This document shows, piece by piece, positions 30,300 through 57,526 of a stretch of DNA of 64,000 bases. Under the pieces are notes generated by a model. It ran no database searches. It saw only the letters and a program-made list of their open reading frames with translations, and had not been told where the DNA came from. The translations under genes were made by a program, and so were the position numbers. Position 1 is the first letter of the stretch. Every line of letters starts with the position of its first letter. This stretch comes from Rhizophagus irregularis (Eukaryota). Where the stretch lies: NCBI RefSeq assembly GCF_026210795.1, contig NC_089430.1:62001-126000 (forward strand), given 5' to 3'.

Positions 30300-30920
30300 G
30301 ATCAAAGGAACTTACAATTAGTCTCCAAAGATGATCAAGTTCCAAGTATCTGTCACTAAAAAAAAAATAAAAAGAACATTAATAACTTCCCTAAACAGAA
30401 AAGAAAAAAAAATGAAGAAATGAACAAAAGAAAAAAAAACTCACCATTAGTCTCCAGAAAGTCCAAAGAAGATATCACTAAAGAAAAAATGGCAAATGGA
30501 ATGTCAATGACGTCTTTAAATGAAAAGAGGATGAAAAAAATGGACGAAAGAAAAAAGTCTTCACATTTATCTTCAAAAAGTCTAAAGAAGTCACTACTAA
30601 GAAAAACAGTAGAATGAACGTCAATAACATCCTAAACAAAAAGAAACCGAAAAACTGAATAAAAAAAATATAGATTTACCATTTGGTCTCCAAAAAGTCC
30701 AAGAAGCAGTTACTAAAGATAAAAAGTAAAAGAAATGCCAATAACTCTCTTAATAAAAAGAAAATAAAAATAATAACACGAAAAATAGAATAAAAGAAAT
30801 AAAACTCACATTAGTTTCCAAAAAGTCAAGAAACGTTGTTGAAAGAAAAAAAAAGCAACAAGAAACGTCAATAACATCTCTAAATTAATAGAAACAAAAA
30901 AAAAACTCCATTAGTCATCA
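30300..30920. repeat. Degenerate tandem repeat of about 120-130 bp, about 5 units
   Basis: Recurrent CATTAGTCTCCAAAAAGTCCAAG ... CACTAAAG ... GAACGTCAATAAC. Confidence 0.65.
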
Positions 30921-31624
30921 TTTAACACAGCCATGCATGCTAAAAATTGACTTATCGGACTCAAAAGATTATCGGACTGAACACCGTAAAGTATAACCTG
31001 TTTCAGAATATATAAAAAAGTTTTGTCTGGATCTACATATTCTGGACCTAATTTCAGATTTCGGCTCGATTTTCAGATTTCGGCTTGGGTTTCGAACCTG
31101 AGTTTTGGACTTTCAGATTTGGCCATATTTTCGGAAAGTTGCGAAGATTTTTTTAATTTTTTTAATTTTTTCTTTCTGTTCATATAATTCAATTTCTAGA
31201 TTTTATTTTTTTTAATTTTAACTCTAAGATCTTTTATTCCATTTTTATAAAATTATTTAGTTACTATATAGTATATTTATTATTTAAATTTAACTTACCA
31301 ATAAATGGATTTTATGCATTATTTGACGTCATATTTTCTTTATCAATAGATGAATTTTATGCATTATTTTTATTCAATGCTATATTTCCTTTTGATTGTT
31401 TGAAAAATGAATTTATCTTTAATTCTATTTGATTTTTTTTTGAGGAACTAATAAATTCCTAAAATAAAAAAAATATATATTAGAAAAAAATATATTAGAA
31501 AAAATTTAAAAACTTGTATACTTTACAGAAACCTTGAAAATTTGAGCGATGTTGAATTGATATGGATACGATATAAATTTCATGTCATAATGGTATCAAT
31601 TTCCGTGATGATATTGTTATAATG

Positions 31625-32218
31625 TTGATTCGATATCATTACTTCATCACCATAATTTATCGCGAAAATATCGTGGCAATATCCATTTAAAAGAATATCA
31701 AATCGGCACAGTCTTGATATCATTACGATGTCAGTAATTTCAAAAAAAAAAGATGTATTTTCGATATTGATTTGATATCGTCACTTCATCACCATAATTT
31801 ATCGCGAAAATATCAGGACAACATTTATTTAAAAGAATATCTGATCGGTATAGTCTTGATATCGTTATGATATTGTTAATTTCAGGGAGAAAAAAGATGT
31901 ATTTACGATATTGATATGATATCATCACATTATCACCATAATTTATCGCGAAAATATCGTGACGATATCTATTCAAAAGAATATCAAATCGGCACAGTCT
32001 TGATATCATTACGATGTCAGTAATTTCAAAAAAAAAAGATGTAGTATTTGCGATATTGATTTGATATCGTCACTTCATCCCCCAATTTATCGCCGAGATA
32101 TCATGACAATATTTATTCAAAAATATCTAATCGGCACAGTCTTGATATCATTACGATGTCGGTAATTTCAAATAAAAAAAAAAAGTATTTACGATATTGA
32201 TTTGATATTGTCACTTCA
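31625..32218. repeat. Left subterminal tandem array, about 143 bp x 4
   Basis: Unit starts at 31632, 31774, 31918, 32063 and 32204. Confidence 0.9.
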
Positions 32219-32219
32219 T

Positions 32220-33400
32220 TGCCGCAACTCATTTGTGGTATCGCAACTCATCCGCAATACCGTAAATATTAAACTTTATTTTTTTACAAATTAATAAAAA
32301 ACTTTTAAATGTATAACGTGCTGTCATATTAATAAAATAAAATTCTGATATTTTATGCGATTTTGAGAAGCTATTACTGATAGAGTTGCGTTTTACCTTC
32401 TAATTTTAACATTGCATCCTTAAAACATACGAATATCGTCAAAAAATCCATGATTTCTCAATATTGATTTTATTTGTGATTATCTAGAATTCAATTAAGT
32501 AATATTTTTAAGTAATATACATTAGTTATCTCAAAAAGTAACTTCTTCTTAATAGACTTAGAGAATACAATGTTGCAAAGCATCTTTTAACGCCAGATTG
32601 AGCTTGTGCATTCATACACCGTCATCCACCTTGTCTCCACGTACGATTTTAGACCTCCTCCTTGTATATTTTTTAATTGAATAGCGCTTTAAGTAATGCC
32701 GCGCCTATAGCCGAATTTTTGAAAAATCTTGTGAGATTACATTTGCGCATTTAATCATGTCAGAACTGATTAAATTAACGCAGCGCGCAATGCACCGTAT
32801 ATCGAGAATTGATGGATGATTTTGAGAGATAATTCGGCGGTGTGGTCCCATAGAGCTGATAAAATGATCATGTGAATCTTAGAATAGATAACAAATAGAA
32901 GAAACAAAATTAAAATCAGAATATTAATAAAGAAATAATAATGAAATTTACCAATCGTACAATTAGTTTCCTTAGCTAATTCATTATAGATTCGTAAATT
33001 TACACGAGCCAATTCAGCTTGTAATAATGTTCCACTTAAAATTTGTCGAGTTGGTAGTAGGTTGTACGCTGGTTGTAAAGTTTTAATCATATCAATAAAC
33101 CAAGGTTTTCAATAACACTAAATGGGATGCTACTCAATACTCATATCAAAAGCTTTAGTAACCGAACGGTCAATAGCATCAAAATATCTCTTTTCCAATT
33201 TGTTGTTTTTTTTGTTAAAATTTTGAATTGATGTATGTTCGTAATTTTGTCTTTGCTTTTATTTGGTGATTACCTCCAGTTTAATTAATCACGATATTGC
33301 AAATTAACTGTGATTAATTATGGTATTGCGGAATAATTGTAACGTTGCAGAATAAATGCGGTTGCGAAATTGCGAAAATTTAGACATCATAATTCGTAAT
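32220..33400 (-). pseudogene. Internally deleted hAT-type transposon remnant
   Basis: Minus-strand peptides LQPAYNLLPTRQILSGTLLQAE and GLKSYVETRW. CGCAA/TTGCG subterminal-like repeats at both edges. Confidence 0.65.
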
Positions 33401-33759
33401 GTTCGCAATATCATAACTGTCATCCTTAATTATAACAAAAAAAAATTAATTTGCAAAAAATTAGACTTTTGTTTATTTTATTACTAAAAGCATCATGTGG
33501 TATATTACAAAATTTCCTTGAATATTGAACTTCACGTGATACAAACCTACAATTAATCAAAAAAAATCTTGATATCGCTAATATCGAAGCGGTATATCAC
33601 GAAGACATCCCCATGGTTTTTTTTTTTGCTTTCCCTCCTACGTTCAAAAAAGATTTTTCAGAAAAATTATAGATATTAAAAAATTGTTACGATGTGAAAA
33701 CTGATAATTCCACGTGTATAAATATATATAATAATAAAAACATATAATACACAATATAC

Positions 33760-35114
33760 CTTATTTCGCAATCGTGATTTTCTTTCATCATTACTACTCT
33801 CTTCATTATCAACGGAACGTCAGCGCCTATGTAATAGCGAGATAAGTCCAATGATCTTGCAACATTTATTTTTTCAGCTACGAGCTGTCTTATCATCTTT
33901 TTTTTAATTAAACATATAATCCAACAACATTTCGAAGAGCTTTTTTCATTTCTTCAGGTAATTCATTTGAAACACACGTTAACCACTGACGAAATATAGC
34001 CAAAACTTCAAGGGGAAGATTGTGAAAATTAGCGCCAATACTACTACTATTTTGATACGTGCTACCTATATTCGGCCACAATTCACTCCTCTTAAATTCC
34101 TAGCAGAATGGTCAAGATGCTGTACGAAGAAATAATGCTCTTAATTCAACGTATATGATGTTTGATCCCCATTTGGGAGGGAACTATAACGTTGCTTTCT
34201 AATAATTCGCTCATCTATTTCTGACTTTATTCACTAGATCTTTGCTCTTGGGAAGGACTTCTGGGTAGTGACGGTCTTTAACAAAGTAACTCCAATTATT
34301 AATTAATAGTAGTTGTTCAAATTCGTCTCTATAATAAAAATTAAAATAGGTTCGAAATATATGAATTATAAATATTACAGATTTATTATAATGATACGTA
34401 AATATATTTACCTTGGGAGTACGTGTTTGTGCATTTTCCAAACGCGGAGAACAATATGGAGAACTAGCCGGAGAAGATTCCATCGGAGTTGTTGATAATA
34501 TAGGACTTTGGCTTTTCTTATATTGCCTTCCGGCAACCATATTGGCGTATTCAGGAAAACAAGCCCAAACCGACTACTTAATTGCAAGATGATCTGACGC
34601 TTTACTCGTTATGTTCTCAATTCTTTCTTTTTTAACATTTCGTCTACAATTATTAGATAGATATCAAGGTAAGTGAATTATTCATATCATAAAAAGAAAG
34701 AATACTGAATATCAACTATAAGTCACCTATTTCTTCTTGACCAATTTGAGGCGATGATAAACGATAGAGCGATGATTGAGGTAGCGGCGACGATTGATAC
34801 TCTTATAGCTATTGAGGTGTTGTGACCATTAAGGTTGAGATTGTTGAAGTTGTTGCGACCATTGAAGGTTGTTGAGGTTGTTGAGGTTGTTGAGGCCATT
34901 GAGATTGAGGTGGTTGCGGCCATTGAAATTGTTGAGGTTGAGATTGTTGAAATTGTTGAGGTTGTCGCGGCCACTGAAATAGAGTTTGGGGTTGAGATTT
35001 TTGCAGTTGTTGAGACTGAGGTTGTTGATATTGCGGTTGCGATGGCTGCCAATGTTTAATAAGCGAGCCTTTTTTACGAATTCCTTGTTCTTTATCAAAA
35101 TCTTGAGAAGACAT
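33760..35114 (-). pseudogene. Companion-family paralogue (Q/S/P-rich N-terminus plus ELRALFLRT domain), decayed
   Basis: MSSQD..SLIKHWQPSQPQ start. Later exons IENITSKA, RDEFEQLLL..YFVKDRHYP and VELRALFLRT match 38730-40582. Stops and frameshifts present. Confidence 0.7.
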
Positions 35115-35302
35115 TTTAATGATAGTTAAAAAATGCAAGTCAAAAAAAAAACAAATATCTAAATATAAAAAAAAAAAGAAATAATTAATTGAATAAAAAA
35201 AAAAAATTTTTTTTATCCCTTTTTTTTGCGTTGATCTTACCACATCATGATCGAAAAAAATTAATTATTAGTTTTTAAATTATAAATTAAATTACAATTT
35301 TA

Positions 35303-36739
35303 CTAATTTAATATATAAACTTGCCTTTTGGGTAATTCCAGATTTAGAATAACTTCCTTGTCCGGAAAAACTGCTTCTCTTAATAGGCAATTGGATCCCT
35401 CAGGATCTTTTGGCAAATCGTACTCAAATTTGACAAATATGAGTTTCGTATTATTAATATTTACATCAACAGAGAGATTTTTCACATTAAAAATAAAAAT
35501 ATCTACAATTAAACAGCTTTACCAAAAAAAAAGTAAATAAAATATTAATAAAAACAATTAATATTAATATAAATAAACTAATATTAATACCTATTAATTT
35601 CGACTTCAAAAATATTGTAAGCTGGTAATTGTGATTGTGATGGTTGTGGTGATTGTGGTGGTGGGAGTTGTACCGGTGATGATTGTGGTGATTGTGGTGG
35701 TGGGAGTTGTAACGGTGATGATTGTGGTGATGGTTGTGATAGGGGCGGCTGTACCGGGGATTGTAGTGATTGGTTTTGTGTATTCTAATTTTTTATAAAA
35801 AATTTTAATAAGTAATAATTCCTTCATTAATTTATATTTCATTAATGTAATAATAGTGCTTACAGATCATCCATCATCATCGTCGTCATCATCATCATCA
35901 TCATCATCATAATCATCATCATCTCCTCCTTTTGGACGTGCTTCTGCGAACATGATTGTTTTACTTAGAGGTCCGATAAATTTTTTGTTTCTCACATAAT
36001 TGTAAAATCTAGTTTTATCATCATCATTTTCGAAGTGCACAAATCCATGCCTAAATATAACAAATGTTCATTTAATTAAATTATTAATTAAAAATTGTAT
36101 ATATTAATTATTTTATTTCATTACCCCCAATCAGGATCCTTTCTGATATGTACAAAATTGTAAGAAAATCTATTCTTTAACCATCCCTTAACGTCTTTCG
36201 ATTTTATCCCTTTTAACTCTTTCGTGTTCTTACCACCGAAGAAAACTGATAATTTATGATCACGACAACATTCATGTCTTTTCTTACCTATATTATTATT
36301 AAATAAAATTAAAAATAATAAATTAATACTTTATATTAAAAAAAAGAAAAATGATTCATTCTTGATATATACTTTTTCATATAATATATTTGATTTCAAT
36401 AAAGGAATATTAAATATCATATTTTAACAAAGGAATGGGAATGTTAAAGATGAAAGGAAACATATTTTAGCCTTTCGGGACGAAAGGAATCTTATTTTAG
36501 CCTTTCGTGACAAAAGGAATCTTATTTTAGCCTTTCGTGATGAAAGGAATCTTATTTTAGCCTTTCGTGACGAAAGGAATCTTATTTTAGCCTTTCGTGA
36601 TGAAAGGAATCTTATTTTAGCCTTTCATGACAAAAGGAATATCGATTATTTTAACCAAGGATTTAGCCTTTCATGACGAAAGGAATATTTTAATTCAGCC
36701 TTTGTGACAAAGGAATAGCAAGCAAATTTACTTACCCAT
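35303..36739 (-). pseudogene. Five-exon gene: RRM-like domain, poly-Asp, P/Q/S-rich tract and alpha-crystallin/HSP20-like C-terminus; one TGA
   Basis: GT-AG splicing gives MGKKRHECCRDHKLSVFFGG...DWGHGFVHF (RNP1-like)...AEARPKGGDDDD. After the TGA at 35867-35869 the frame continues to QSPVQPP... and YNIFEVEINSCLIVDIFIFNVKNLSVDVNI...FEYDLPKD...EAVFPDKEVILNLELPK. Confidence 0.65.
36450..36715. repeat. 30-bp minisatellite with palindromic core CCTTTCGT-G-ACGAAAGG, in intron 1 of the RRM-like gene
   Basis: GAAAGGAATCTTATTTTAGCCTTTCGTGAC-like units, about 6 near-perfect copies plus degenerate ones. Confidence 0.9.
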
Positions 36740-37669
36740 TTTTCTTTGTTTACTAAATCTTACGAAACCCACATTCTTATTGTAATTCGAATGCAAAATT
36801 CGATAAATTTTATTGGTCAGTTAATGTTAATCATCATGTGAAATCAAATATTTTTTTTTTAGTCATACTCAAGTTTCACAAACCCAATTATATTGCACTA
36901 TACGTCATAATTACACATCTTAATTACAAAAAAACTTTTCGTGTCACTTATCAGTCCAATCAAAAATAAATAAACCGGATTTTGAACAGGCGTAACACGA
37001 GATTATATTTAAACGGTACGGTAACACTATTAGCTTTAGCCTTTAAGCAATGTGACGAAAATTATACCCTACCTCCCGCTGTCAACACCTTCTTCACCAA
37101 GAATATTATATTCTTCGAGAGATGTGTTAATATCTATGACGAACAACAACTGGCTAATTCCTTACAACCATCCAGTATAAAGAGGCCTGTAAAATTTGTA
37201 AGTATTTTGGCCATTCTGTAAAAAGTTGCCCCAATTTAAAATCGCAGTTTTGATGGGGTAATTATTGTATACGCTGCTGGAAAGCTGGGCACAACAGTAG
37301 TGAATGTAAAAATGAACTGGAGGTCGTGCCGTTCAATGAAGAGTTTCGTTCTCCAGAAGAAATTGTAAATTTTTTGATTTATAAATAGTTTATTTTTTTT
37401 AAAAAAAAATTTTGAAATTTTTTTTTTCTTACGAAATTTACCATGAATTGCTGGTAGCAGTGGCAAATTTCGAAAGTTTATCTGGGCCGTGGTGGCAGGG
37501 TGAACTTTTTTTTTATACTTTTATTGTATGAAATATTTTTCAATTTTTACAACCTAATAAAGAGTTAACGGACATTTTTTGAATATCATCTTGAATGCTA
37601 AATTGATATGGTGATAATGTTAAATTCATATTGCAGAAAATATAAAAAAAAATTGTTCAATATGGAAGT

Positions 37670-38125
37670 CAGTAATTTGATGGATCAGTGATGTCAGAAT
37701 CAACATCGGAAGTACATATTGAAAGATCACGTCGTATTTTGATAAATTTATTGATGTCGCGACGTTATAACCAGAAGTACTTGGAAAATCACAGTTAACT
37801 GTGTAGAGGCTTCCATTAAATGAGAAAAATTTTTCATGTGCTGCGTCATTGCTCCTCTTCCAAATTAATGATTTCTGCTTGTCTGGTTGATTGAGATTGT
37901 TGTCTCCTCTTCAAAATGTGGACACCTGGGCAATATTGTAAACGAGGTAGTTGTTCATCCTCATAAGGATATTGCAATCGAAATGGTCTGTAATTACGTC
38001 CAAATTCAGGATAATATTGTGATTGAGGTTTATAAATGGATTGTTGTTGCCGTTGATATTGCTGATGATGTTGTTGTAGATGTTGTTGGTGAAGTTGATG
38101 TTGATGTTGCTGTTGCTGTTTTTAA
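37670..38125 (-). pseudogene. Internally deleted companion-family copy (Q-rich N-terminal part fused to the C-terminal motif)
   Basis: QQQHQHQLHQQ... is followed, across a frame break, by DAAHEKFFSFNGSLYTVNCDFPSTSGYNVATSINLSKY. This aligns with DARDRFFTHTGNLYTV..SGYNIGSSIDLSKY at 38730-39560. Confidence 0.7.
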
Positions 38126-38729
38126 AAATAACCTTCACGATTAACTCAATTTAATATTTTATTATTGTATTATAAAATCCAATATACTAATAAAAATGAT
38201 TTGATTTATTTTAAAAAAACACTGCATGATATCTTCGTGATATCAGTTTGTAATTGTAAAAAAATTATCTAAATGATATTGCCGTGATGTTTCATAATTG
38301 TACCAAAAAAAATCTAAATGATATCGCCGTGTTCGATTCAGTTAAAGAATGTGAATGAATGTTCGTTAATTTTGGTTGCAAATTTGAAGTTTTATTTTGG
38401 CAATAATGTTATACAATAGAAATAAAAATGATAAAGAATATACTATCTACCCGTCTTCTTTTAGATTGTGAAAGTAAAAAAATATATATATATATATATA
38501 TATAGATACAAAGAAAAAAATTATTGTTGTAGTAACAATGATAATTATAATCATTTGACCTGGTTTTTAAAATGATGGTTTTTTACATAGAATTTTTTTT
38601 TTTAAAAAAAAAAGAAAAATTTGTTTTATAAATTTACATACGAACCTCTCATCAAACTTCAACACACGACCAGATACTTTACTTTTCTACGCTAAAAATT
38701 TAAATTGAAAAAAATCTACATAATATATA

Positions 38730-40582
38730 TTATTTTTTTCGCTTTTTAGTAGATTTCTTTGATTTCGGCTTTGGTTCATCCTCAGAGCTGGAATTTGAAT
38801 CATCATCATCATTATTTTCAATTTCATACTTTGATAAATCAATCGAAGAACCAATATTATATCCAGATAAATTGTTAAAAATATTATTAACCGTATAAAG
38901 GTTTCCGGTGTGAGTAAAAAAACGGTCACGTGCATCACTGTTATAAATTTCTAAACAGTGGAATCCAAAAAGAATTAAATTTTTAAGCAAATTTTCGTTT
39001 TCTTGAGATATCGGCTTGTCCGAAAATTTCAACCAAAGGTTGAATATTTCTTCAATATGACGACCTTTTAAGTACGGCTTGAAATCAAGACTTTCATCTT
39101 TTTCTTTACGTTTTTGATAAGTTTCGTATCTAAGCTTGATGTTATCCCATAATGTATTTCTCCAGTACGACCAGGTTTTACGAAAACTTTTTGCTATATT
39201 ATGTAATATGTCAGGATGATCGTTCATAAAAGTTGGTAACAATGACGCTAAGAAATCTTCTATAATTTGATTATTGTTGCTTTTATCTAAGTTTCTTGTT
39301 CTTAGGAATAATGATTTTAATTCGTTAATCACTATTATTCTTAACCACTTTGGGATAGAGTTTTGCAACGATATAATATTAGAAATTCTCTTCTGGTTAT
39401 ATGATATATTTGTATCACGATCTGTGAACTTTTCAGGAGAATTTGCATAAGGGCGAATCGATGTTGGATATCTTCGATTCTTGAGATAGAATTTTGGCAG
39501 CTGTAAGCCTGAGCTTAAGAGTTCTTCTTCCATATCATCCCTAATTTTTAAAGAAAACATTGTTATATGAAGATTACAAGATGATAAATATGAAAAAAAT
39601 ATATTTGTTACATTGGATTCATCCGAGGGAGAGTTGAAGATGTAACAGAAGGTATAGCAATACCAAGAGAAGAAGTACTAGTACTACTTTGAGTTATAAG
39701 AGGAATTTCTTCCAAGGTATCCCTAATTTTAAAAAACATTATGTTAATATGAAGATTATAAGATTATAAATATGAAAAAATCATATTCGTTACATTGAAT
39801 CCGTCCGTGTGAGAGTTGGGGTTGTCATAATAGGTGTAGACGATGAGGAAGTGCGGCTTCGTTCTTCACTAGAACGCTTGCCTCTGTGGATCATCTGCTC
39901 GATTTGATCATGTAAATGTTCAGGGAGCGTCATGGCAAAGCGTTCTGCAATAGATTGTCGGACATAAACAGGATTAACGGCTCTGGACATGATGTCCTCG
40001 ATTTGTAGAAATAGTGTAGTGAGTAAATTATCTATATGATAGAAATAACGTTACAAGTTATTGTTCTGTTATTGAAGATTTCTTCAAATACCGAATATTA
40101 TAATAATACAGACCAATTTCTTCATCAGAAAGTAATTGTGTTGAAGGATGCTGCAAGTGTTGTAAGGAATACGAGGGTATGGAAGCTGTTGTTGTGACGA
40201 GGGGTATGGAGACTGTTGTTGTGACGAGGGGTATGGAGACTGTTGTTGTGACGAGGGGTATGGAGACTGTTGTTGTGACGAGGGGTATGGAGACTGTTGT
40301 TGTGACGAGGGGTATGGGTACAAGGGGTATGGAGAATGTTGCCGTGACGAAAAATGTTGAGAGGGATATGGATACTGTTGCTGTGACGAACGTAAGGAAG
40401 GTAAAAGTTGAGATGATTGAGATAAATATTGTTGTGACCATTGAGGTTGAGATTGCGATTGCGAAAGGCGATTGCGAAGGCGATTGCGAAGGCGGTTGTG
40501 AAGGTTCCCAATGCTTAATAAGAGAGCTCCGTCTATGACTTTCTTTTTCTTGTACAGGCTTATTACGATCTTGAGAAGACAT
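38730..40582 (-). CDS. Companion-family protein (ELKSLFLRTRN domain), multi-exon
   Basis: MSSQDRNKP start at 40582. Exons at about 40582-40113, 40031-39794, a short exon near 39720-39614 and a long last exon ending at 38730 with an acidic tract and basic NLS-like tail. Confidence 0.7.
40172..40335 (-). repeat. 27-bp coding minisatellite, about 5 copies
   Basis: GAGGGGTATGGAGACTGTTGTTGTGAC units on the + strand. Confidence 0.9.
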
Positions 40583-42059
40583 TTTTTGATAATGGTTTCT
40601 ATGAGTTAAAAAATGTGGGTCAAAAAATTTTTTCAATTGAATTTTTTTTTTTATTTAAATAATTTTAATCTTACCACATCATGATCGAGTAAAAATACGG
40701 TTAATTTCGAAAATAAAAATTATTTTTTGCCATTGATCTATTACATCGTGTAATACAGATTTTTTTAAGGGAAAAAAAATCTGATTAATTATTTAATATA
40801 ATGATGGATATTGTGATTAAATCATGAACAAGTAATTTTTTCATATCGTGATTATATTACTTTTTTTCTTAAAAAAATCATACGGTACAATAAAAACAAT
40901 GGAAAAAAGAATTTTTTTTTCTTTTTCGAAATTAAATAGATTAGATTGAGTCAATAATTAGACTTTTCTTTTTTTCGAAATTAATCTCATCATATGATTA
41001 CGGATATTGTAATTAAATCATGATCGAGTAGAATCTTTTTTCAATTTTTCTTTTTTTTTCTTTGTGATCGAATAAAATTCCATATCGTGTTTATACACCT
41101 ATTAGCAAAAAAACTTTTTTTTGCAAAAAAAAATTGTATTGATATTGGTTTCCTAATAACACTACGGGTTCCTTGAACCCTCTCAAGCATCTAAAGTTAA
41201 ACTCTCTCATAAACACAGAGAGCGCAACTTACCTTAATATGACATGAATACTAAATATGCTTAGTAGTGAGAACGAAAAATTAAATTTTGGGGATCAACA
41301 AACTGAAATGGATTTTAACACATGAATCCTTCAGATGAAATTACTATGTTAGTAGAAAATTCAGGAGGTGGAAATAAACAGTATAATTATAATTTTGCTT
41401 CGCCACAATAACTTTTTATAATGGTAACAATCGTTATATAATTTTGATTATTTTCTACATGACCAAAATAAGTATATTGTCTTTTTAACAAAATTTTTTA
41501 AGATCATCAAAATATTATTTTGATATTAGCAACTGAATGTTGGAACACATGATCGGAAATCTGATTCTTCAATAATTTAAGTATAATACTTATACGAAAA
41601 TTTATAGCATATTTTTTTTATTTTATATTATAGTGTATTATAAGTTTATTATATTATTATTATCATAAAAAAAAATTGTGACCCGTCTTGCATAATTGCG
41701 CTTCTTCACTCCAATGTAAATAAAATGTGATAAAAGATAATTTTTTTATTATAGTACCTAATATCATAAAAACGCTAACATTTTATTTATTAGGGATGAT
41801 ATTGAAAAAAGCTTGTTGAAGCTGGATTATCGTTACCATTAAAATATCTGGAAATTTGATCATTTTTCAAAATTTGATTTGACGAATCGTTCAAGTACAT
41901 CGTTCCTAAATAATGGCTTCAATTCGCCGAAAATTATCTTTCTAATCCACTTCGGTAGTGATTTGTACGACTCAAAAAGCAAACGTGCCATTTGAGCTTG
42001 AGTAATGCTGCCTGAATTGTGTGGATCGATGAATTCTTTTTAAGGATACGCTGACGTGT

Positions 42060-42387
42060 TACAAATTTATAATAATTTGCGTAACGTCCTTTGGAAGAAA
42101 TTAGTAGAAAGGTACATTAAATATAAAAATAGTAAAGAGAAGATTAAGCCGAATGTAAATCTAAAGAATCGACAAATTAAGGAAAATACTAACGGAGGAG
42201 AATGAGAGCGCACTTAAAATCTCATCATCTTTGGGTTTTATTGTATTGAGAATTTATAAGATGCGCACGACAAATTTTTCTCATTTTACGGAAGCCTTTT
42301 CACAGTTACTTGTGATTTTCCAAGCTCTTCGAGATATAATATTGCGGCTTCTATGGATTTATCAAATTTTTATGTAGTCTTTAAATA
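42060..42387 (+). pseudogene. Companion-family C-terminal fragment in inverted orientation
   Basis: NLRNVLWKKLVERYIKYK..NLIIFGFYCIE..DAHDKFFSFYGSLFTVTCDFPSSSRYNIAASMDLS, with frameshifts and a stop. Confidence 0.7.
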
Positions 42388-42648
42388 ATAATAATCATAC
42401 ACGTGATAATATAGTGGCCATAAGTCACACGCTCCTGGGTATAATTTCATGGGATGGTTTTTTCCTGAAGGGAAAAAACCCTGAACTACTGTAGTTACTG
42501 AAACAGGAATTATACACGAGATCTTTACGTTGTACTAAACTAATTTTGACGACAGTACAATTGGACAATTTCCAAAATTGTTGAATCCCAATAATAAATA
42601 ACATCTTTTTTCGATAAAAAAAAAAGGTAATTTTCTTTTCATTTAATA

Positions 42649-43209
42649 ATGGGAAAACCATCATTACATTCTAGGAAAACGGCCTGGCGTAGACAAAAAA
42701 AACGACAATATAAAAAATTTAAACAAAAAGAAATTGAAATATCTGATCTCCAGATACAGCTCCAGGATTTCCAAAAAGCTGTTGAGACAGCCGGTGAACA
42801 AGTGATTTCCAAGCTAGACAAAACTGAGCGTGAAAACGCAAATCTATTGAAGTGGATCGATATTTTTTCAAATCAAATCTCAAGTCAGGAAGAAGAGATA
42901 TATAAGCTTGAATTAAAGAGTTATTTAGCACAATCATCATCGTCTCTGTCATCTCCACCACAGCCACCATCATCATCATCATCATCACAATTGTCACCGA
43001 CATCTTTTAAAAGCATGGATGAGTACTTTAAACATAATCAAGTTAGTAATTTTTTAGGTATTGTGCAATTTTTAATGATTTTTATTTTTATAATTAATGA
43101 ATTGTTCTCATTTTTTAGTAAAAGAAATCTAGTAGTTCATTATTTTTTTTTACTATTCTCATTTTTTTTAAATAAAAGAAATTTTTGTAATATTGAAATA
43201 AATACATAA
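42649..43209 (+). CDS. Hypothetical basic/coiled-coil protein; the real exon probably ends near 43021
   Basis: Basic N-terminus, heptad-like helix and S/P tract. The AT-rich tail after CAAGTTAGT looks intronic. Confidence 0.45.
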   Translation: MGKPSLHSRKTAWRRQKKRQYKKFKQKEIEISDLQIQLQDFQKAVETAGEQVISKLDKTERENANLLKWIDIFSNQISSQEEEIYKLELKSYLAQSSSSLSSPPQPPSSSSSSQLSPTSFKSMDEYFKHNQVSNFLGIVQFLMIFIFIINELFSFFSKRNLVVHYFFLLFSFFLNKRNFCNIEINT

Positions 43210-43899
43210 AATAATCAAATTCGTATTAATAATATATCGTGTAAAATATGTTTTATTTGCCAGTAAATAATAAAAAAAAATATTTGTAAAGGTTTAACTG
43301 GGAAATTTTCGCCTATCAGGAGGATATGGGGAAATTTTCGCCCGCTAGAACTCTACGATAATAATCGCCATAAGGTATACATAGTAATCGAACCAGAGAC
43401 CCGCTGCGATGCGGATTTCCTATCTCAAACTACTCTACCACATGCGATTATCTGTTTAAGGGATATTTATTGATTACTCTTTATTACTAAATTACTGGAT
43501 TATTGATTGTGCTATTCCCTAATAAGGTTTGTACGATCACTGTAAGACCTGTTATGTATGTATATATACATGTTAATTGTTACTGCGTTAAGAGATTGTT
43601 AATTTTTTTTTTTATCAAAAATTAAATGAGAAAACGATTACAGTTATGATAATTGATGATTATAAGGTCAAGGTTACGATAAAAAAATAATTTTTAGAGA
43701 ATGACATAAATAACAAATTAATAGTTATATTTTAGCGTCAAATTGTGTTGGTGAAGTTATTACGACATTAACTTATTAACTTGTGAAGTCACATTCTATA
43801 AACTTTTAAAACAATATGATATATTGTAATCTTTATTATAATAAAGGAATAAAAAACATATCAATGTTATCACGGTCTTTTATGTGATATGTACTGTAT

Positions 43900-45464: not shown

Positions 45465-45597
45465 GATAAACAAACAAGATGGTACTTATTGGTATTGTGC
45501 TAGTAGCAACGTAAAGAAATAGGTGATTCCTGACGAAACGAATACAGCATTATCTTTATTTATTTATAGAGATTTCTCCTAATATTAAGAAAAAATT

Positions 45598-48500
45598 ACA
45601 TCGTGACCGCAGCACATAAAAGGAAATTGGGTTAGCATTCTCGAAAAAAACGTTCATGGTTACATTAAATCTTGGATAGTTGATCGGAAGAATTTGTTAA
45701 TGGTTACATCGATTCTTTATGAAGAAAATTTTGGGAAAATTTGATGTCTTAACGGTTACATGTAAAGAAATTATATATGAGTATCGTAACCGTAGGACAT
45801 AAACGGAAATTTGGCCAACAAAATTTTCAAATTATTGGAATAATTGATCAGGAAAATCCTTAATGGGTATATTAGCTCTTTGTCCGCAGAACATTAATGG
45901 TAATTTCGAGCAATATTAACGGTTACAAGTAAAGAAGCTATATATGAATATCGTGATCGCAGGACATAAACGGATTTTCGGGATAATTGATCAGGAGAAA
46001 AAATTTGTTAATGGTTACATAATCAGGGTTGAAGAATTATACTGTACGTACTATATTATGCTGTCCTAATACTTAAATAGAGTACATTTTTTATATGTTT
46101 AATATATTATATATTTATTTTAATAATTAGGATTGATAATAAATTATTAACTATTCTTTTAATCTTAATAGAAAAAATATTATATTAAATATTTAACAGT
46201 GCAATATTAATGGGCAATGGAAAAATTGCGGTTACATGTAAGGTGATCGCAGGACATAAAAGGAAATTTAGATTCAGATTTGGGGATAATAAAAATTATT
46301 AATGGTTACACATTGATTTTTTATCTGCAGCGCATTGATAGAATTCAGGGGTAATCTGAAAAATTTGACAGAAATATCGTGATCGCAGGACATAAACAGA
46401 AATTTAGATCAAAAAATTGATCGGAAAAATATTTGTCAACAGTTCTGTTGATTCTTTATCTGCAAAAGATCTTTATCTGCAGCACATTGGTGGAATCTAG
46501 GGTAATGATCTGAAAAATTTGACATGAATATCGTAGTCGCAATAAATAAATAGAACTTTAGGTCAATAATTGATTGGAAAAAATTATTAATGGTTACATT
46601 GATTTTTTATCTGCAGCGCATTGATAGAATTCAGGGGTAATCTGAAAAATTTGACAGAAATATCGTGATCGCAGGACATAAACGGATTTTCGGGATAATT
46701 GATCAGGAGAAAAAATTTGTTAATGGTTACATAATCAGGGTTGAAGAATTATACTGTACGTACTATATTATGCTGTCCTAATACTTAAATAGAGTACATT
46801 TTTTATATGTTTAATATATTATATATTTATTTTAATAATTAGGATTGATAATAAATTATTAACTATTCTTTTAATCTTAATAGAAAAAATATTATATTAA
46901 ATATTTAACAGTGCAATATTAGTGCAATGTATACAGTAAATTGATGAATTTTGGGCAATGGAAAAATTGCGGTTACATGTAAGGTGATCGCAGGACATGA
47001 ACAGAAATTTAGATCAAAAAACTGATCGGAAAAAAATTTTGTCAACAGTTCTGTTGATTCTTTATCTGCAAAAGATCTTTATCTGCAGCACATTGGTGGA
47101 ATCTAGGTAATGATCTGAAAAATTTGGCATGAATATCGTGGTCGCAATAAATAAATAGAAATTTAGATCAATAATTGATCGGAAAAAATTGTTAATGATT
47201 ACATTGATTTTTATCTGCAGCGCATTGACAGAATTTGTTACATTAATTCTCTATCTCGGAATTATTTTAAAAAAAAACTTTTACAAGTTGTTGACCCAAA
47301 TTTCCTTTTATGTAGTGCAGTCATGATATCACAGTCGTAATATTATAAAAAAAATTACTTTGTACTTTTTTCCCAAAGAATTCAATTGATATTTTTTTAA
47401 AGTTTGACTGTCCATATCTTATCAGTTACATATAAAAATACCACATCTCAGATCAGAGTTTTTAGATTTCTAATAAAAAAAAGTTAGAAAGAAAATGTCC
47501 TCTCCCAAACCTAGTAGAGAAGAAACAGGTATAAAAAAAAAATACCTCATATTAATTCATTAAATAACGTATGATAATATTCATATAATTTCTTTCATAT
47601 ATAGATAATACGATATTGATCTCGCTAGACGATCTAATAAAAGAACAAACCCGATTGAACGATCTTTGCCAAACCAACATTAAAAAGAAACGGCAACGTC
47701 CGTCTCGTAACAACCGAACGAAGACCATGGGAGACTGGGCTCAGATGGTGAAAAAAGTATAATCATTTGATTCTTTAATATTTTGTGATAATTTGAAATA
47801 TTTAACACTTTAAAATTATTTGTTAGAATTGATATTGCCATTATATGAAGTTATATCTCATTACAATACCGCACAATATTACTATATTCACCTTCTTTTC
47901 AATTTATTTCAATAAAAAAATAAATCTTATGTAATTTTATAATTGTATATATCCGTAAAGCTCACCACTAGTGATTTTATCATAATAATTGATCGTAATA
48001 ATTTAAAATCATAAAAATCAAAATTTCATATAAACCGGAACACGAATTGCTAACAATTTTTTTCTGATCATTTGTCTTGTCTAAATGTGCTGCGATCACT
48101 ATATTCTTAAAATGTAATGTCAATTTTTCAGAAAAGCTTTGTTAACCCAATTTCCGTTATGTCCAGCAGCCTATATAAATTTCTTTACATGTAATCGTCA
48201 AAACATCAATCAAGAGCTTTGTTAACCCAAATTTCTATAGTTACGATATTGTTCATTATATAATTCATTAACAGTTAATGTAACTAACTATTAACGAATT
48301 TTTTTTCCGATCAATTATCCCAAAATTTGATGATCTAAATTTCCGCTTATATCTTGCGGTCACAATATTCATATAAATTCCTTTATATATAACCGTTAAA
48401 GAAGTCAACTCATCAGATCATTACCTCAAAATTTCGTCAATGCATTGTAAGTAAAGAACCAATGTAGCCATTAAGAAAATTTCCCGATCAATTCAAATTT

Positions 48501-49006
48501 CCGTTTATGTCCCGCGGTCACAATATTCATACAAAATTTCTTTGCACGTCAATTTTAGATCATTTTACCAAAATGTACTGTGGACAAAGAACTAACGAAT
48601 GTAACCATTGACATTTTTTTCTGATCGATTTTCCCAAAATTTAAGAAATTAGTAATCTAAATTTCCGTTTATGTTCTGCAGTCACGCACGATATTCATAC
48701 AAAATTTCTTTGCATGTAACTGTTGTTAACACGTCAATTTTAGATCATTTTCCCCAAGATTTCCATTAATGTACTGTGATCCAAGAACTAATGTAACCAT
48801 TGACATTTTTTTTTCTCGAAATTTCGTGAAATTCGTAATATAAATTTCCGTTTATGTCCTGCGGTCACGATTTCATACAAAATTTCTTTACATGTAACCA
48901 GATCATTGCCCAAAATTTCCGTTAATGCACCACGGACAAGGAACTAATGTAACCGTTAAGAAATTTGTTAACCCAAAATTTCCGTTTATGTGCTGCGGTC
49001 ACGATA
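45598..49006. repeat. Two oppositely oriented complex repeat arrays between the companion gene and the transposase
   Basis: ATCGTGAYCGCAGGACATAAACGGAAATTT is repeated on + at about 45600-47200 and as its reverse complement at about 47300-49006. Includes a direct duplication of about 45950-46210 at about 46662-46920. Confidence 0.85.
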
Positions 49007-49134
49007 CTATGATATCCAATTGAAAATATTATAAAAGCAGTTAATGAATTAAATACACAAACGCGCATGGACATTTTTTAAATTTATGATTTTATTTCAT
49101 TTTATTATTCCTTATTATAATTATTGTCATAGCC

Positions 49135-52100
49135 ATGTTACGAAATAAACCTCGAAAAGCGAATATTGCTGCAATACCTTTTCGTATCCGTAATAATTTT
49201 AGAAGGTTGCCCAACAGATTTTTATTATCGGATAATGATGACAATGAAAAAATGGTACAAAAAGATTTTGAAGATGATAATATTAGTGGCGAAGAGTATA
49301 ATGAATATGGCGACGGAGATGATAATTTAGAACAACGAAGTGATGATGATCATATAGAACAGCGAAGCGATAATGGTGATGATTTAGAACAACGAAGCAA
49401 TGATGATCATTTAGAACAACGAAGCGATAATGATCATTTAGAACAACGAAACGATAATGATGATGATTTAGAACAACGAAGCAATAATGAAGAAGGTGAT
49501 ACCAACATGATTTCAACATCATCAGAGAATGAAACAGAAAGCGATTATATAATGTCCTTAGAAAGTGATGAAGATTATGAAACAATGTCGTCAGATAATG
49601 AAGAAAGACATGATTCTGATATCTCAGAAGAAAAGCTATTCGTTGATGAAGCATTGGCTAAAGATAAGTTACCATCTTTTGATGGTGATTTTGCTCCATA
49701 TTTTCAAAATTTAACTACTGCTGCCTTATTTTGTTGGATTTATAAACATAATATTTCAACAAATGCATATGAAGATCTTGTTGACATTATCATGAGACCA
49801 GAATTTAATAGAGATCATATTGTAAAGAATATTCGGAGATTTCGATCATGGAGGGAGCGTCTTCCTCTTCCCTCAATATCAGCAAAATCTATCTCAATTT
49901 CATCAAAAAAACACCATCAACTTTAAAGGATTCAAAGATGGCATATCAACTTTCAATAAGTGATATCATTTGGAATGTTCTTAACAACCCATCACTATTA
50001 AAGGAAATGTATTTTGGTGCTGGTGTCGATTCAAAAACAAAATCCGAGTACTGGCATGGTACCTTATGGGCAGAGTCACCTCTTTTCGGTCAAGAACAAT
50101 TAATGATATCAGGGGGTAATTATTTATTAAATGCAAGCTGATGGTAGAGAGGCGAAGCAATAAAGTACAAGAGACTAACACTTTTTTCATATGTATATAA
50201 TAGAGATATACCAATGCGGCGATTTTGTTTACTATTACGATAATGAGCGAAAACTTGGCAGATTGAGAGCGATATTATTAAATGAAGAGAACCAACAGTA
50301 TCGGCTGAGAATCCAAAAAGTTCTAGATTATAGTGACTTGCCTGGAAATTTTAAGGGAGAATTAAGACAAAATCGCTCTCTTTCCGGAGAAGTTTGGTTA
50401 CAAGATGAACCATTCTTGACAATAACAACATCACAAATTTCCGAAAAGGTTGCTGCAGATACACTACGAATTACCGAAATACTTTATAAACATCATACAC
50501 ACTGGCGCATTCGTGATGCAACGTTCTCTTATCAACATCCTTCAGAATATATTTCCATAAGGCAGCCACCATCTCCAACAATTCCGGTTTATAAGCTGTT
50601 TTTGGACATATACTACGATGATTTTGGAACATTTAGGAATGTTTATCATTCGTTAGGAGGTGTTTATGTGCAGTTTGGAAATATGCCTGCCCGTCAAAGA
50701 AAGTTGCTCAAAAATCACTTTGTTCTCGGGTTTGTTCCTTTCGGTGGTAATTTCAATGAATTCATGTTGCCATTCATTTCTGAAATGAAAGAATTCGAAC
50801 AAGGAAAATTAATGGAAGTGAATGGCCAAGATGCTTGGGTGATAGCCGGTTTAGGTGTCGTAACTGCTGATTTACCACAAGGGAATGACATGTGTGATGT
50901 ATTACGACATAATGCCAATAAAGGTTGCCGCACTTGTACAGCCTCTCGAGAATCACTTACCAACTTCTCTCAGGATGTACCAGCAACATCAAGATATCAT
51001 CACATCACTGACGATCAATTTAAAGAGATATTTGATGAACCTGCTACCACAAGGCAAAGACGACTTTGTACTGAGTTCGGACTAAGAACAAGGCCTAGCA
51101 TTTTGGATAGGCTGCTAAGAGAAAGGCATCTACAGACACCTCAAGATGTATATCATGCAACTGCTGGGAAGATTGGACGACTTCTTAAATTAACGTATGA
51201 TCTTAGAATTTAATTAACTTTAGCTAGATATGTAACGAACAAAATCTTTTAATAAAGCTTTTTGATTTCCACAGGTGCGAATTATTTTCACAAAAAGGAG
51301 AGGACGAGTTTATCAAAGCCTGGAAGAACTTAGAGAAACCAAAAAAATGGTCTCGTTTGCCAAATCCAATTAGCCACAATGCTAGTTTCATGATGTCTGA
51401 CTATCTTAGGCTCGCTATGATAATGCCTTTTATACTTAATAGTTTTTTAGAATCATCAAGCTTAAAGGAAAATGAATCCAGAAGCATTCTGCAACGAATT
51501 CAAGAATCACGCATTAACATGGCGAAAAATGTAATAATTGCTTGTTGGGTATATGTAGCAAAAACAATGAGGATAGTTTTTGAAAGCAAGTTTACATTAG
51601 ATTCGTATGACGAATTACAAAAATGCCTTGAAGAAGAAATGAAAATTCTTCCAAAGGTACAATTATTCATAATTCTTATATAATTTTTTATTTTTTATTT
51701 ATCAATATATAAAATATTATTTAATAATGTGGCTTTAGGTTTTCCCTGAATTTGCTAACTTACCAAACCTGCATATCAATATTCACTTGCTGGTGCATGC
51801 AAGGACTTATGGTACTCTTATAAACACTCAAGTTGGTATCAAAGAGATGGTGCATCGGATCTTTAAAGCAATGGTACCACGAACAAATTGCAAGAATGTC
51901 GAGCTAGACTTGTTAAAGCGGTATACTACGCTCTTTGCAATTCGTCATTTAGTAGATGGAGGCGCAGATCAAAGATTATCACAACCTTGTAGAGGTTTCG
52001 CTACTATGTCCTCAAATTTTAGAAATTTATTGACTAATTGGTATATTACTGAAGACAAGGTATCAAATGAACAAGAACCGGAAGGAAATGAAGAAGGTTT

Positions 52101-52703
52101 GTATTACAATTTTATAATAATAATATTTCCGCAATTATTAACGTATTTTTATTTTATATAGCGATTTCATCTCCAGTGGATTTTATTACAAATATTATCT
52201 TAAAGAGGAGCTTATCCCGTCAGGATCGCGAAAATATCATGAAAAATTTGCCAAATTTCAAATCTGAGCTGCTTCTTTCATTTATGGACATTGGACAAAA
52301 GTCAGCTCTTATATATTCTCAAATGAGCTGGTATGAATTGGCGACATACACTATGGAAGAAAGCGATGGCGTATTTTCCAAAGTACATCTTCATATTGGT
52401 GACGTCGTAACAATACACGAGGAAGACAGTGGTGAATGTTATGCGATTATAAAAGGGATCTTCAAATACAAAGGCAATGATGATAAATATTATGCCTTTA
52501 TTACTATTGATTGGTTTGACAATATTAACAGAATTCACAACGTATTGAAATGTCCTCTTTTTCGCATTCAGACAAGCCAAGACATTCGCTGGAGAAGAAT
52601 CTTCCCGATATCAATAATTGACCACGTACAGAAAGTTCACTTTGTCTATGATACGAAAATTGATTTGTGGATAAAAAATAATTATTATTTTACGGCTATA
52701 TAG
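49135..52703 (+). pseudogene. CMC/EnSpm-like (Plavaka-related) transposase with BAH-like segments; near-intact, one frameshift
   Basis: About five exons. Motifs EYWHGTLWAESP, DIYYDDFGTFRNVYHSLGGVY, TADLPQGND, GCRTC, PQDVYH, NLPNLH and KEMVH. Frameshift in the A-run near 49905-49911, which could be a sequencing error. Confidence 0.85.
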
Positions 52704-52910
52704 CTTTATTATGCAGTACAATGATTCTTTTCGGTATATTTATTTATGATAACGTGATTTATTAAATAAATAAAGATAACGATATCGTTACGATATCGTT
52801 TGATATCGTATTCATGAATTTATTAGGCACGTGACTTTGCAATTTTTATCCAATCAAATCATTGTTTGTTAGACATGTTAAACATTCGCACGATTATGTT
52901 TACGTCTACA

Positions 52911-53933: not shown

Positions 53934-54009
53934 TAGTATTTAATATTTGTGACGAAATCCGATAATGTTGTGCGTAACTACTCCATTATGTTATAACGAT
54001 ATCGTCACG

Positions 54010-54460
54010 TTGGTTTATGTTAACCATCTGGGGAGAGAGAGATGTGTCTAATTTACCAGGTACGATCGTATCTTTAATTTCGCAGAAACTTGCACCATAA
54101 TCCGTGTACTTATTAATTTAACAATTGTCACAAAGTTTCGATACAATATTAGTGTCATAACAGTTAACCATCTGGAGAGAGAGATGTCTAATTTACCAGG
54201 TACTTATCTTTAATTTCGCAGAAACTTGCGTTGTATGTAATACAGACTCTTGTCAATTCAGTATTTGGTATAATATTAGTGTCTTATGTTAACCGTCGGA
54301 GAGAGAAGTAATTTACCAGGTGCGTCGTAATCAGGAAACTTACATCAATTCAACATTTATAATATTATTGTCATACCGATATTGTCGCATTGTTTTATGT
54401 TACTAGAGAGGGATGCGCCTACATAATTTACCAAGTACGATTAAACTTCGCAATACTTAT
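54010..54460. repeat. Degenerate tandem repeat of about 120-140 bp, 4 units
   Basis: GTTAACCATCTGG..GAGAGAGA..TAATTTACCAGGTAC recurs near 54019, 54163, 54288 and 54400. Confidence 0.75.
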
Positions 54461-54731
54461 CAATTCAACAATTGTGAATCAATAATGACGGAACGTGACT
54501 ACTTCAAGCTGTAATAACAATGATATCGATACGTTGTTTTTATTTTTCATTTTGACCATCATAATTGCATATTAATAATATATACGGCATTATCAATTAA
54601 TAAAAATTATTGAATGTACTAGTACCTACGGTTCACAATTTTTTCATGACCCAAAATTCTTGTCAAATATCATCTTGATACTGTGTAAATGTCGTCCTGA
54701 TATCTTAATAATATTTTTAAATGAAATAATA

Positions 54732-55402
54732 TTTTTAAATGATATCGTAACAGTACGGTTTGATAATTATATCGATACATTTTCAACATCATCGCAACAT
54801 CTTCACGATAACATCACGATTTTTAAATGATATCGTAACAGTACGGTTTGATAATTATATCGATACATTTTCAACATCATCGCAACATCTTCACGATAAC
54901 ATCACGATTTTTAAATGATATCGTAACAGTACGGTTTGATAATTATATCGATACATTTTCAACATCATCGCAACATCTTCACGATAACATCACGATTTTT
55001 AAATGATATCGTAACAATACGGTTTGATAATTATATCGATACATTTTCAACATCATCGCAACATCTTCACGATAACATCACGATTTTTAAATGATATCGT
55101 AACAATACGGTTTGATAATCATAACGATACATTTTCAACATCATCGTAACATCTTCACGACGACATCACGATTTTTTTGAAGATATCGTGACGATATAGT
55201 TATGATAGTCTTAACGATACCTTTCCAACATCTTCGCGATATTAAATTACGAAATCAATATGATATCGTTCTGATATCAAAATGTTACCGATTTTAATAT
55301 CGCGAAGATGTTGGAAAGGTATCGTTAAGACTATCATAACTATATCGTCGCGATATCTTCAAAAAAATCGTGATGTCGTCGTGAAGATGTTGAAAATGTA
55401 TC
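54732..55402. repeat. Right subterminal array: 88 bp x about 5.5, followed by an inverted copy
   Basis: GATATCGT at 54741, 54829, 54917, 55005, 55093 and 55182. About 55148-55244 is inverted at about 55295-55390. Confidence 0.92.
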
Positions 55403-57526
55403 ATTAAAATATTGTGGCAAATTTGAAGATTTCAGCAAAGTATTTATTAAATAACTTACTATATTACCAATATTAATTTCTGTTGGATTTATTATTGATA
55501 ATTTAAACTTAATATATTTCCTATATGGTTAATAAGTTTTTTTTTTATGAAATTGAAGAATTTATTTTTTGTTTGACAGACTTAAAATAAATAAATTCAT
55601 AACTAAAATAATTCATTAAATTTTATTAATAATTATTATTAAAATATCAATTAACTTTTTAATTATTTTACTACTATCTTTGGTTAAGATCTTTTTTAAT
55701 ATATTTGAATATAGCTTTCATTCACTCAATAATTTCTTTTGATTATATATTCTTAATTGTCAATCTGAAAAATAGAGATAATTTATATAGATTACTTCTA
55801 TAGCAGCAAGGATTCTTTATTTTTCCTATTTTTATTTAATATAAAAAAAAATAAAATGTTAGTTTTTGTGACGCAATAAAAAGAATTTTAAATGTTAGCC
55901 TTTTGTAATAAAAGGAATTAAATGTTAGCCTTTAGCAATGAAAGGAATTAATAAATGTTAGCCTTTCATAATGAAAGGAAGCTTTTCATAACAAAAGGAG
56001 CCTTTTTTAACGAAAGAGAAATAAGTTAGTTTTTCACAAGAAAAGAAGTAAAATGTTAGCTCTTATTTTGTAATAAAATTAATTTAATTACGAAAATAAT
56101 TAAATAATTTTATTTACCTACTGAAATTCAGTTTAAAAAAAAATAAATAATAAAAAAAATTGCCATGAGAATTTAAAAATTAAGAAAATTTTAACCAATT
56201 AAATCAAACTAGTCATGAAATATTCTGATCAACATTCTTTAATTAACATAAATAAAAAAGGTGAGATTGATTTATGTTATTATATTAACTTTTTTAAAGT
56301 AGTACACTGACATGTTCTTGCTAACAAGGATAACGATCAGACAAAGAATTTGTAAGTTAGATATATGCTTTTTTATTACATACTAACTTTTATAACTAGA
56401 TTATAATTTATAGCAATACCAATAAAATTTTAGAATATTTGAATTTTATTCATTTTTAATTAAACTGATTGTAATACTTGAATATTCTGCTTATAAAAGT
56501 TCTGTTTTCTATACTACGATAACAAACAAATAACACATATATATTATAATATATTTATAAATAAAAAGAATTGTAAAATTACAGTAAATTAAATATAAAG
56601 ATATAATAAAGAATTAATATGTTTTTTATAATACTTATCAGTACCTGATATAGGACTCTGAGCTATATATATAGAGGTAAGATGCAGCTAAAAAAATTAC
56701 TATTAGCTCTATGCATTTTTTCAGGGCCGGAATTATGATAATGCCAGCCAGCATCTAAAAAAGAAAATAAATTTCGGCTGGAATTATCTATAAAAAAAAA
56801 GATCTACATAATTATTTTGGTCAATTCTACACAAACCTTTACCCTATCTTTTTATGTATAGCTTGGAATCTTCCTGATATATATCAAACCTAGTACTTTA
56901 TAACATGTAAACATATTTTAAGTATTAAGATGTGCATGTTATGGGTATCTGATATATTACTAAAGTATAAAAAATACACTAATACTGTATATATATATTA
57001 TCTAATTGATAATATATATAATATATAAGAAAAATAAATATTGCATACATTAGGTATTTGATATATATAAAATAGACTATCAGAATCAGGTATATTAGTA
57101 ACTATTAAAAGGGATATTAGAGGATTTGAATAATACTAATATAACTTATAAGTAAACTTTAAGTACTAAAGTAAAAATACATTTTATGACATAACTTAAT
57201 CAATATTGAAGCTAGGAATTCGATTTACTATCATTAGGAATCCTCTCATCAAGATGAATCTAATGATATAAATTTTATTAAAATCGAATCACTGGTTGTG
57301 TTAAAATAGGGGTATGTAGGATAACAAATTTTGAAAATATCCCTATAATACGCAACTTTTGAAAAATTTTAATATAAACTCTATGCAAACTCAAATGTGA
57401 GTTATATCAGTATTGGTTGTGATCCTGATATCAGGAGTCTGAAATTTATATTTTCAGAAGTGTATGTTTATAGAAAAAAATCAGGTATATGATATATTAC
57501 CAGGTTAAAAAACTATCTGATATGTA

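Follow-up and report, generated by a model that had tools for sequence, protein, structure and literature searches.

A probable 24-kb CMCT-type DNA transposon with an enlarged left arm in Rhizophagus irregularis

The window analyzed here is a 64,000-nt stretch of the Rhizophagus irregularis genome (contig NC_089430.1, positions 62,001 to 126,000; coordinates below are those of the window), in which a first-pass annotation had proposed a large, cargo-carrying CMC/EnSpm-like transposon at 31521-55440. We estimate at roughly 70% the probability that this interval of 23,920 bp is a single cut-and-paste transposon belonging to the CMCT (CACTA-Mirage-Chapaev-Transib) clade. The 24-kb unit probably exists as such and is probably a recently multiplied form of an already known clade, with no host cargo demonstrated. 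Judging from sequence similarity, its extra genes are for the most part likely to derive from the element's own helper gene, as old and diverged copies, and not from capture of host genes.

The left end of the element (CTTTACAGAAA, + strand) begins at 31521 and its imperfect terminal inverted repeat (TIR) runs to 31544, and the right TIR (55418-55440, - strand; reverse complement CTTTGCTGAAA) stops at 55440. Immediately outside each end lies the dinucleotide TA (31519-31520 and 55441-55442), as first reported, forming a putative target-site duplication (TSD); the left flank ends in ATA and the right flank starts with TAT, so that only TA is repeated. The two TIRs had been described as identical at 19 of 24 positions, a value that holds over 24 columns if one gap is allowed, whereas the ungapped identity is 17/24. 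A smaller element of the same family occupies 4808-16929, and the first 11 bp of each end of the large element differ from its TIR at two positions, in agreement with the initial description. TA is found outside all four ends of these two elements, and the window holds just four instances of the motif TA-C[AT]TT[GA]C[AT]GAAA, one per end, as compared with 0.07 expected under a second-order Markov model; this count is not an independent test, because the motif was defined from the same four ends. The termini read CA..TG in the small element and CT..AG in the large one, the criterion for the CMCT clade being mostly 5'-CA..TG-3' termini with a TSD of 2-5 bp.

Both ends carry subterminal repeat arrays, composed of a CGATAT-rich unit of ~144 bp repeated 4.2 times on the left (31625-32219) and of an 88-bp unit repeated 5.1 times on the right (54731-55176). 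The unit lengths given earlier (143 and 88 bp) are thus essentially reproduced, and the arrays share ATATCGTGACGATAT (at 31954 and 55183), as had been noted; their placement within about 100 bp of each end holds for the left array only, the right one lying ~260 bp from the end with a hairpin of 99-bp arms (55148-55391) in between, so that the right subterminal region as a whole spans 54731-55391. The density of CGATAT reaches 16-20 per kb in the end regions, whereas the 800 bp next to each end contain none and the stretch between 17 and 31 kb has 0.6 per kb. Independent evidence for the ends is provided by a set of 32 metagenome loci, most of which are too short to include an end. A TA-anchored scan of these loci found the same end to the left of the transposase in L014 and to its right in L016 and L027, on the expected side in each case, in loci whose transposases are 49-57% identical. 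In L027, two TIR-like motifs (4990-5076) face each other ~85 bp apart at the right end of the element. A single 18-nt TIR match in viral_contigs (L033) showed no further similarity and was taken as chance.

A five-exon DDE transposase of the CMCT clade with a BAH domain is encoded near the right end (49135-52703, + strand), which bears out the near-intact transposase of the first-pass annotation, one base short. The shortfall lies near 49905, in a run of seven A residues where eight bases are present in all related loci that fit the search pattern (8/8). Because eight of the nine listed indels that separate the element from read data sit in homopolymer runs, the missing base is likely an assembly error; uninterrupted transposases of 1084 amino acids (aa) are present in R. 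irregularis (P0387, P0414). A 333-aa exon query retrieved 182 relatives, the best of which, among the 120 listed, are R. irregularis proteins at 100% identity, and the top matches in this species are often annotated as "BAH domain-containing protein".

An alignment of 32 of these 120 relatives (numbered by P0009, the large element's relative; counts over non-gap rows) shows conservation of D465 (31/31), D549 (31/32), C568 and C571 (29/29 each), H796 (24/24), H800 (24/25) and E820 (21/22), with the catalytic roles of D465, D549 and E820 assigned from motif order. The D-D-E residues, CxxC and HxxxH (H796xxxH800) correspond to the C(2)C / H(3-4)H signature of the CMCT clade (Kojima 2025, PMC12730594). 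Pfam searches of the six transposase open reading frame (ORF) pieces in the window returned no transposase family, and among the 32 relatives they returned Plavaka in three (best E 1.2e-5, a weak match), BAH in four and Transposase_21 in one (E 0.069); P0115 bears a precomputed PF18759 label. In a low-confidence predicted structure (mean predicted local distance difference test score, pLDDT, 49), residues ~300-435 match a BAH domain (Z 11.4, root-mean-square deviation (rmsd) 2.3, 111 residues aligned), a weak match to RAG1 is seen (Z 8.6, rmsd 14.4, 241 aligned; Foldseek E 0.009), and a second, C-terminal domain is rich in beta strands. A profile search of PDB sequences gave low-complexity matches only, and neither the transposase nor the left-arm gene family described below had a relative in viral_contigs or genome_contigs. 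Ten long distant relatives were picked from 150 listed, and the six with species names come from Ascobolus, Morchella, Geopyxis and a lichen fungus.

Side by side, the transposases P0387 (R. irregularis) and P0381 (R. clarus) are identical at 838 of 845 aligned residues, and one identical transposase sequence occurs on three R. clarus contigs. These observations suggest recent activity and possibly horizontal transfer.

Head-to-head with the transposase lies ORF2, a multi-exon core accessory gene (43900-45464, - strand; start predicted). Its homologs adjoin the transposase in the small element as well as in L007, L014 and L016, and the family comprises 62 matches across Rhizophagus, Funneliformis, Gigaspora, Dentiscutata and Cetraspora. 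The predicted fold of a relative (P0150, pLDDT 55) had no Foldseek match at E 0.001 and a best VIA Z of 5.2, so that ORF2 was assigned no fold. Between ORF2 and the transposase, two internal repeat arrays in opposite orientation (45560-49010) flank a small ORF (47495 to ~47880, + strand), and L002 and L004 have these arrays ahead of their transposase genes as well. A further array follows the transposase (53940-54400) and is common to L002 and L030.

We examined copy depth in four of 24 listed sequencing runs, which had been retrieved with positions 29000-36000 as query and whose Logan contigs were aligned to 29001-44800; the figures derive from 32 listed pieces of ~14,300. In three of the four runs, the left arm had ~4 times the depth of the flank: interior contigs reached 3.3-5.5 times the left-flank contig in X4 (32278-44487), 3.9-4.5 times the flank bin in X11 (32318-43200) and 3.3-7.3 times the flank in X19 (32210-43890). 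The plateau extends from 32.2 kb to 43.2-44.5 kb, far past the query. In X4 the depth jumps from 291 (30255-31412) to 1187 at 31604. GC content is alike on the two sides (27% in the flank, 28-35% in the interior). Neither the local drop of depth in X11 nor the low share of runs X21-X24 was counted as absence, and the listed joints and loose ends, mostly poly-A/T matches, were left unused.

Linkage of the left arm to the transposase is indicated by neighbouring accessions in two other assemblies. The most complete left-arm gene, unit c (see below), has copies at 95-96% identity on three contigs of one independent assembly (OCT59_009993, OCT59_012169 and OCT59_017227, on contigs of 4.29, 6.14 and 3.47 Mb, respectively), and the transposase OCT59_012172 lies three tags from OCT59_012169 on the same 6.14-Mb contig. 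In the other assembly, a unit-c protein (GET56466.1) and a 99% identical transposase (GBC53093.2) are both encoded on a 202,036-bp contig. The depth, these neighbours and the CMCT motifs support the proposal of the first-pass annotation that one large unit is mobilized by a DDE enzyme and not by a Starship-type recombinase. The unit-c or transposase genes of P0126, P0416 and P0387 lie on short contigs of 23,892, 23,195 and 22,318 bp, near the size of the element, which may be collapsed copies.

The same data bear on the view that the interval consists of two adjacent pieces, namely a self-multiplying non-autonomous left-arm element (31.5-43 kb) and a ~12-kb ORF2-transposase element that lacks a left end. 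Such a division would fit the other family members, which measure 8-12 kb and carry only ORF2 and the transposase (L014 and the 4808-16929 element), the presence in the OCT59 assembly of at least six transposase models (005519, 029020, 012172, 007757, 004669 and 028451) as compared with three unit-c copies, and the drop of X11 depth at 43.8-44.8 kb. We nevertheless regard it as unlikely: TA-flanked, TIR-like sites starting with C inside 31521-55440 are limited to two poor, two-mismatch matches (36150 and 46929), X4 depth is equal across 43.5 kb (1568 as compared with 1587), and the two assemblies mentioned above place unit c next to the transposase.

Alternatively, a segmental duplication, or a mixture of nuclei or strains, could account for the extra depth, the element itself being an old, immobile relic. 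In favour of this reading, contig depth is blind to the difference between dispersed and tandem copies, three of the four left-arm paralogs are broken, and CpG decay is in progress. We consider this reading very improbable, since the depth step in X4 falls within ~200 bp of the TIR, copies occur on three different chromosome-size contigs, the uninterrupted 1084-aa transposases noted above exist in the species, and one X4 contig of 2,228 bp at ~5-fold depth implies near-identical copies.

Several observations weigh against a single mobile element. The ungapped TIRs agree at only 17 of 24 positions, and next to the right end of L014, which was located by eye, stands AT instead of TA. The structural model of the transposase has a low mean pLDDT (49), and its RAG1 match a high rmsd. 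Among the sequencing runs, X1, which is closest to the window by its listed contigs, is uneven (0.5-2.5 times the flank, with no plateau); the flank value of X11 is a bin sum, and its depth drops at 43757-44800; and summed contig depth is not equivalent to copy number. The 24 loose ends listed, of 2,811, include no empty site and no alternative flank, and none of them falls at a TIR. The reads covered 29001-44800, and beyond the window the linkage of left arm and transposase rests on adjacency of accessions; beside OCT59_009993 and OCT59_017227, no transposase is present among the matches listed, which represent part of each cluster. Finally, the profile alignment that relates the left-arm genes to ORF2 (below) was given a probability of just 19%.

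The left arm was described as ~12 kb of extra genes. An extra region is indeed present, measuring ~11 kb (32.3-43.3 kb), and the gene at 43.9-45.5 kb, which is ORF2, belongs to the core of the element and not to the cargo. Within the arm we found four units of one gene family, three of them broken: unit a (33800-35114, 3' limit approximate, - strand), a Q/P-rich N-terminus followed by a broken ORF2-like domain; unit b (37630-38121, - strand), a Q-rich start fused to the C-terminal end of the domain, with the middle missing; unit c (38730-40582, - strand), the only near-complete paralog, with a Q/P/S-rich N-terminus and a ~250-aa helical domain; and unit d (41863-42385), whose halves lie on opposite strands, reflecting an internal inversion. 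Units a and c share an upstream motif and the N-terminus. Unit c has 29 relatives, of which the 20 with species names are all hypothetical or unnamed R. irregularis proteins without a Pfam domain; no R. clarus protein occurs among the 29. A second R. irregularis subfamily (P0129-P0149), ~50% identical to unit c, is spread over many different large contigs, which suggests another enlarged element.

Profile comparisons link this family to ORF2. In a search of 4,931 segments, a profile built from 23 of the 29 unit-c relatives matched the L014 ORF2 at E 8.6e-5; the match to the ORF2 exon of the window had E 0.02. At a threshold of 12 bits or more, the left-arm hidden Markov model (HMM) matched 13 of 62 ORF2-family proteins as compared with 0 of 682 decoys, and in the reverse test the ORF2 HMM matched four of 29 left-arm family members at 12 bits as compared with 0 of 319 decoys. 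Alignment of the left-arm profile with an ORF2 profile (25 of the 62 proteins) by hhalign gave 158 collinear columns that reach the C-terminus, at 24% identity and E 0.0012. The similarity is weak but consistent, and units a-d are likely deeply diverged paralogs of ORF2; on this reading, the arm would be mostly element-derived.

The arm holds further coding traces. Nearest to the left end among them is a broken hAT transposase fragment (32590-33258, - strand), which resembles DUF659 in Pfam at E 0.011, below the cut-off, and weakly resembles a hAT within the small element (tblastx E 0.16). A two-exon ORF with an acidic tail (35867-36330, - strand) is possibly an RNA recognition motif (RRM) fragment, its best RRM match (E 0.069) not being significant. 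A third ORF (42652-43209, + strand), with a basic start and a predicted coiled coil, has no family. Adjacent to the second of these, a 30-bp palindromic tandem array (36419-36716) recurs in the same orientation at 55875-56016, 430 bp beyond the right end of the element, and may belong to another mobile family.

That the left arm might be captured host cargo benefiting its host, as in Starships or Pack-CACTA, is quite improbable. The small ORFs at 35867-36330 and 42652-43209, which show no link to ORF2, would fit such a view, as would the mere ~24% identity between the left-arm family and ORF2. Against it, no left-arm ORF has a significant Pfam or host-function match, the named unit-c matches (20/29) are exclusively hypothetical or unnamed R. 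irregularis proteins, and the left-arm family and ORF2 are reciprocally similar. The earlier view of the arm as captured host genes is therefore not supported, the four units likely being ORF2 paralogs. Intact, functional host cargo was rejected, given the absence of significant Pfam matches and the reciprocal similarity to ORF2.

Among known systems, the closest named group to the CMCT element described here is ESTA, which makes TA duplications, with termini that differ. The two share a CMCT DDE enzyme that carries the C(2)C and H(3-4)H motifs, similarity to RAG1 (weak in the present case), a flanking TA repeat, a fungal host and the possibility of extra genes. The ESTA entries covered (1-30 of 88) start with CAC, whereas the present family starts with CTTT or CATT; they measure ~7-14 kb and come from rusts, together with one that has the suffix AB, as compared with 24 kb here. 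We found no TET/JBP gene in the element, in contrast with ESTA. Rhizophagus is not named in the PMC12730594 text or in the part of its supplement consulted.

Like EnSpm/CACTA elements, the element has short TIRs, subterminal arrays, and a transposase with a second ORF. Plant CACTA elements can exceed 20 kb. Enlarged En/Spm forms of 16-20 kb with 4-5 ORFs have been described in Chondrus (PMC6431247). The assignment to CACTA/EnSpm in the first-pass annotation was, however, not upheld: the ends read CTTTAC / CTTTGC and not CAC(TA/TG), and the flanking repeat is a 2-bp TA, unlike the 3-bp TSD of fungal EnSpm (PMC12730594). CACTA proper was rejected on the non-CAC termini, the 2-bp TA repeat and the presence of Transposase_21 in just one of 32 relatives (E 0.069). 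Plavaka (PF18759) is likewise a fungal CMCT lineage in which 2-bp TSDs occur, with weak Pfam matches in three of the 32 relatives; CMC and Plavaka families have been reported from R. irregularis, Plavaka being prevalent (PMC11075540). The termini of PlavakaA (TGT..ACA) and PlavakaB (CATCA..TGATG; PMC12730594) are both absent here, and the transposase exons of the window have no Plavaka Pfam match.

The element resembles Starships as a large, multi-gene fungal mobile unit. It differs in carrying a DDE transposase near its right end rather than a DUF3435 tyrosine-recombinase captain, in its TIRs and TA flanks, and in extra genes that are likely element-derived; no DUF3435 Pfam match was found among its 24 scanned ORFs. 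Starship identity was rejected on the lack of such a match and on the hAT fragment being the first coding remnant. Starships have been reported to occur in filamentous Dikarya only (PMC13465315). Other new fungal CMC lineages, CNEST among them, are being named (PMC12810828). The literature searched contains no description of the element, the family possibly being included already in the PMC11075540 repeat library or in Repbase; under the terms searched, the portions covered of PMC11952901, PMC10234402 and bioRxiv 2025.06.16.659975 do not mention it.

In the mechanism we propose for a single CMCT transposon, the RAG1-like DDE transposase would bind and cut at the two short TIRs and excise the 24-kb unit, with insertion predicted at TA, much as an En/Spm-type element operates. 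The CGATAT-rich arrays may assist as binding sites for the transposase or for ORF2, by analogy with TnpA of En/Spm; ORF2 would likely be a TnpA-like helper. The left arm may have expanded as ORF2-family genes were repeatedly duplicated within the element or acquired, with later divergence and breakage of most of them. The BAH domain, judged from its fold, might read chromatin and steer or regulate transposition, and copies may be silenced through CG methylation. Of the 40 listed differences from the read data (160 in total), 36 fall inside the element, and 24 of the 35 transitions among these are at CpG sites, as compared with a background of 15-20%, an excess that fits the CG methylation of transposons reported in R. 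irregularis (PMC8647823).

We further raise, as a tentative and somewhat doubtful extension, that an unnamed CMCT lineage (BAH domain, RAG1-like, CWTTRCWGAAA ends, TA targets) is common to Glomeromycota and Pezizomycetes, and that in R. irregularis its 24-kb form is mobile at present, has passed from one Rhizophagus species to another and, through amplification of its own accessory gene, generates part of the multi-copy orphan genes of the fungus. Arbuscular mycorrhizal fungi are described as lacking Starships, yet they have many multi-copy orphan genes and strong strain variation, and a DDE element of 24 kb, if mobilized as one piece, would be a concrete, testable route to both. Proteins annotated in Rhizophagus as "BAH domain-containing protein", and several families annotated as "hypothetical", are likely products of transposon genes, and a chromatin-reader fold within a RAG1-like transposase offers a lead on target choice or silencing evasion. 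Within the wider clade the size is unexceptional, and the element showed no cargo of benefit to the host.

The window contains other mobile sequences. The smaller element of the same family (4808-16929), which has its own ORF2 and a transposase ~44-67% identical by segment to P0009, harbors a nested hAT at ~9950-12600. Further transposon remains occur at 1-4371, 18930-25395, 57648-58712 and 61807-63620, and comprise a Tc1/mariner (DDE_3), a TNP-like RNase H gene with an Agenet domain behind it, and two reverse-transcriptase/RNase H-like frames that were identified by eye. Long palindromic elements resembling miniature inverted-repeat transposable elements lie at 28333-28871, 29911-30284 and 59048-59890, the first two of which share TCGAAA/ACAGG-type ends and 11-bp arrays.

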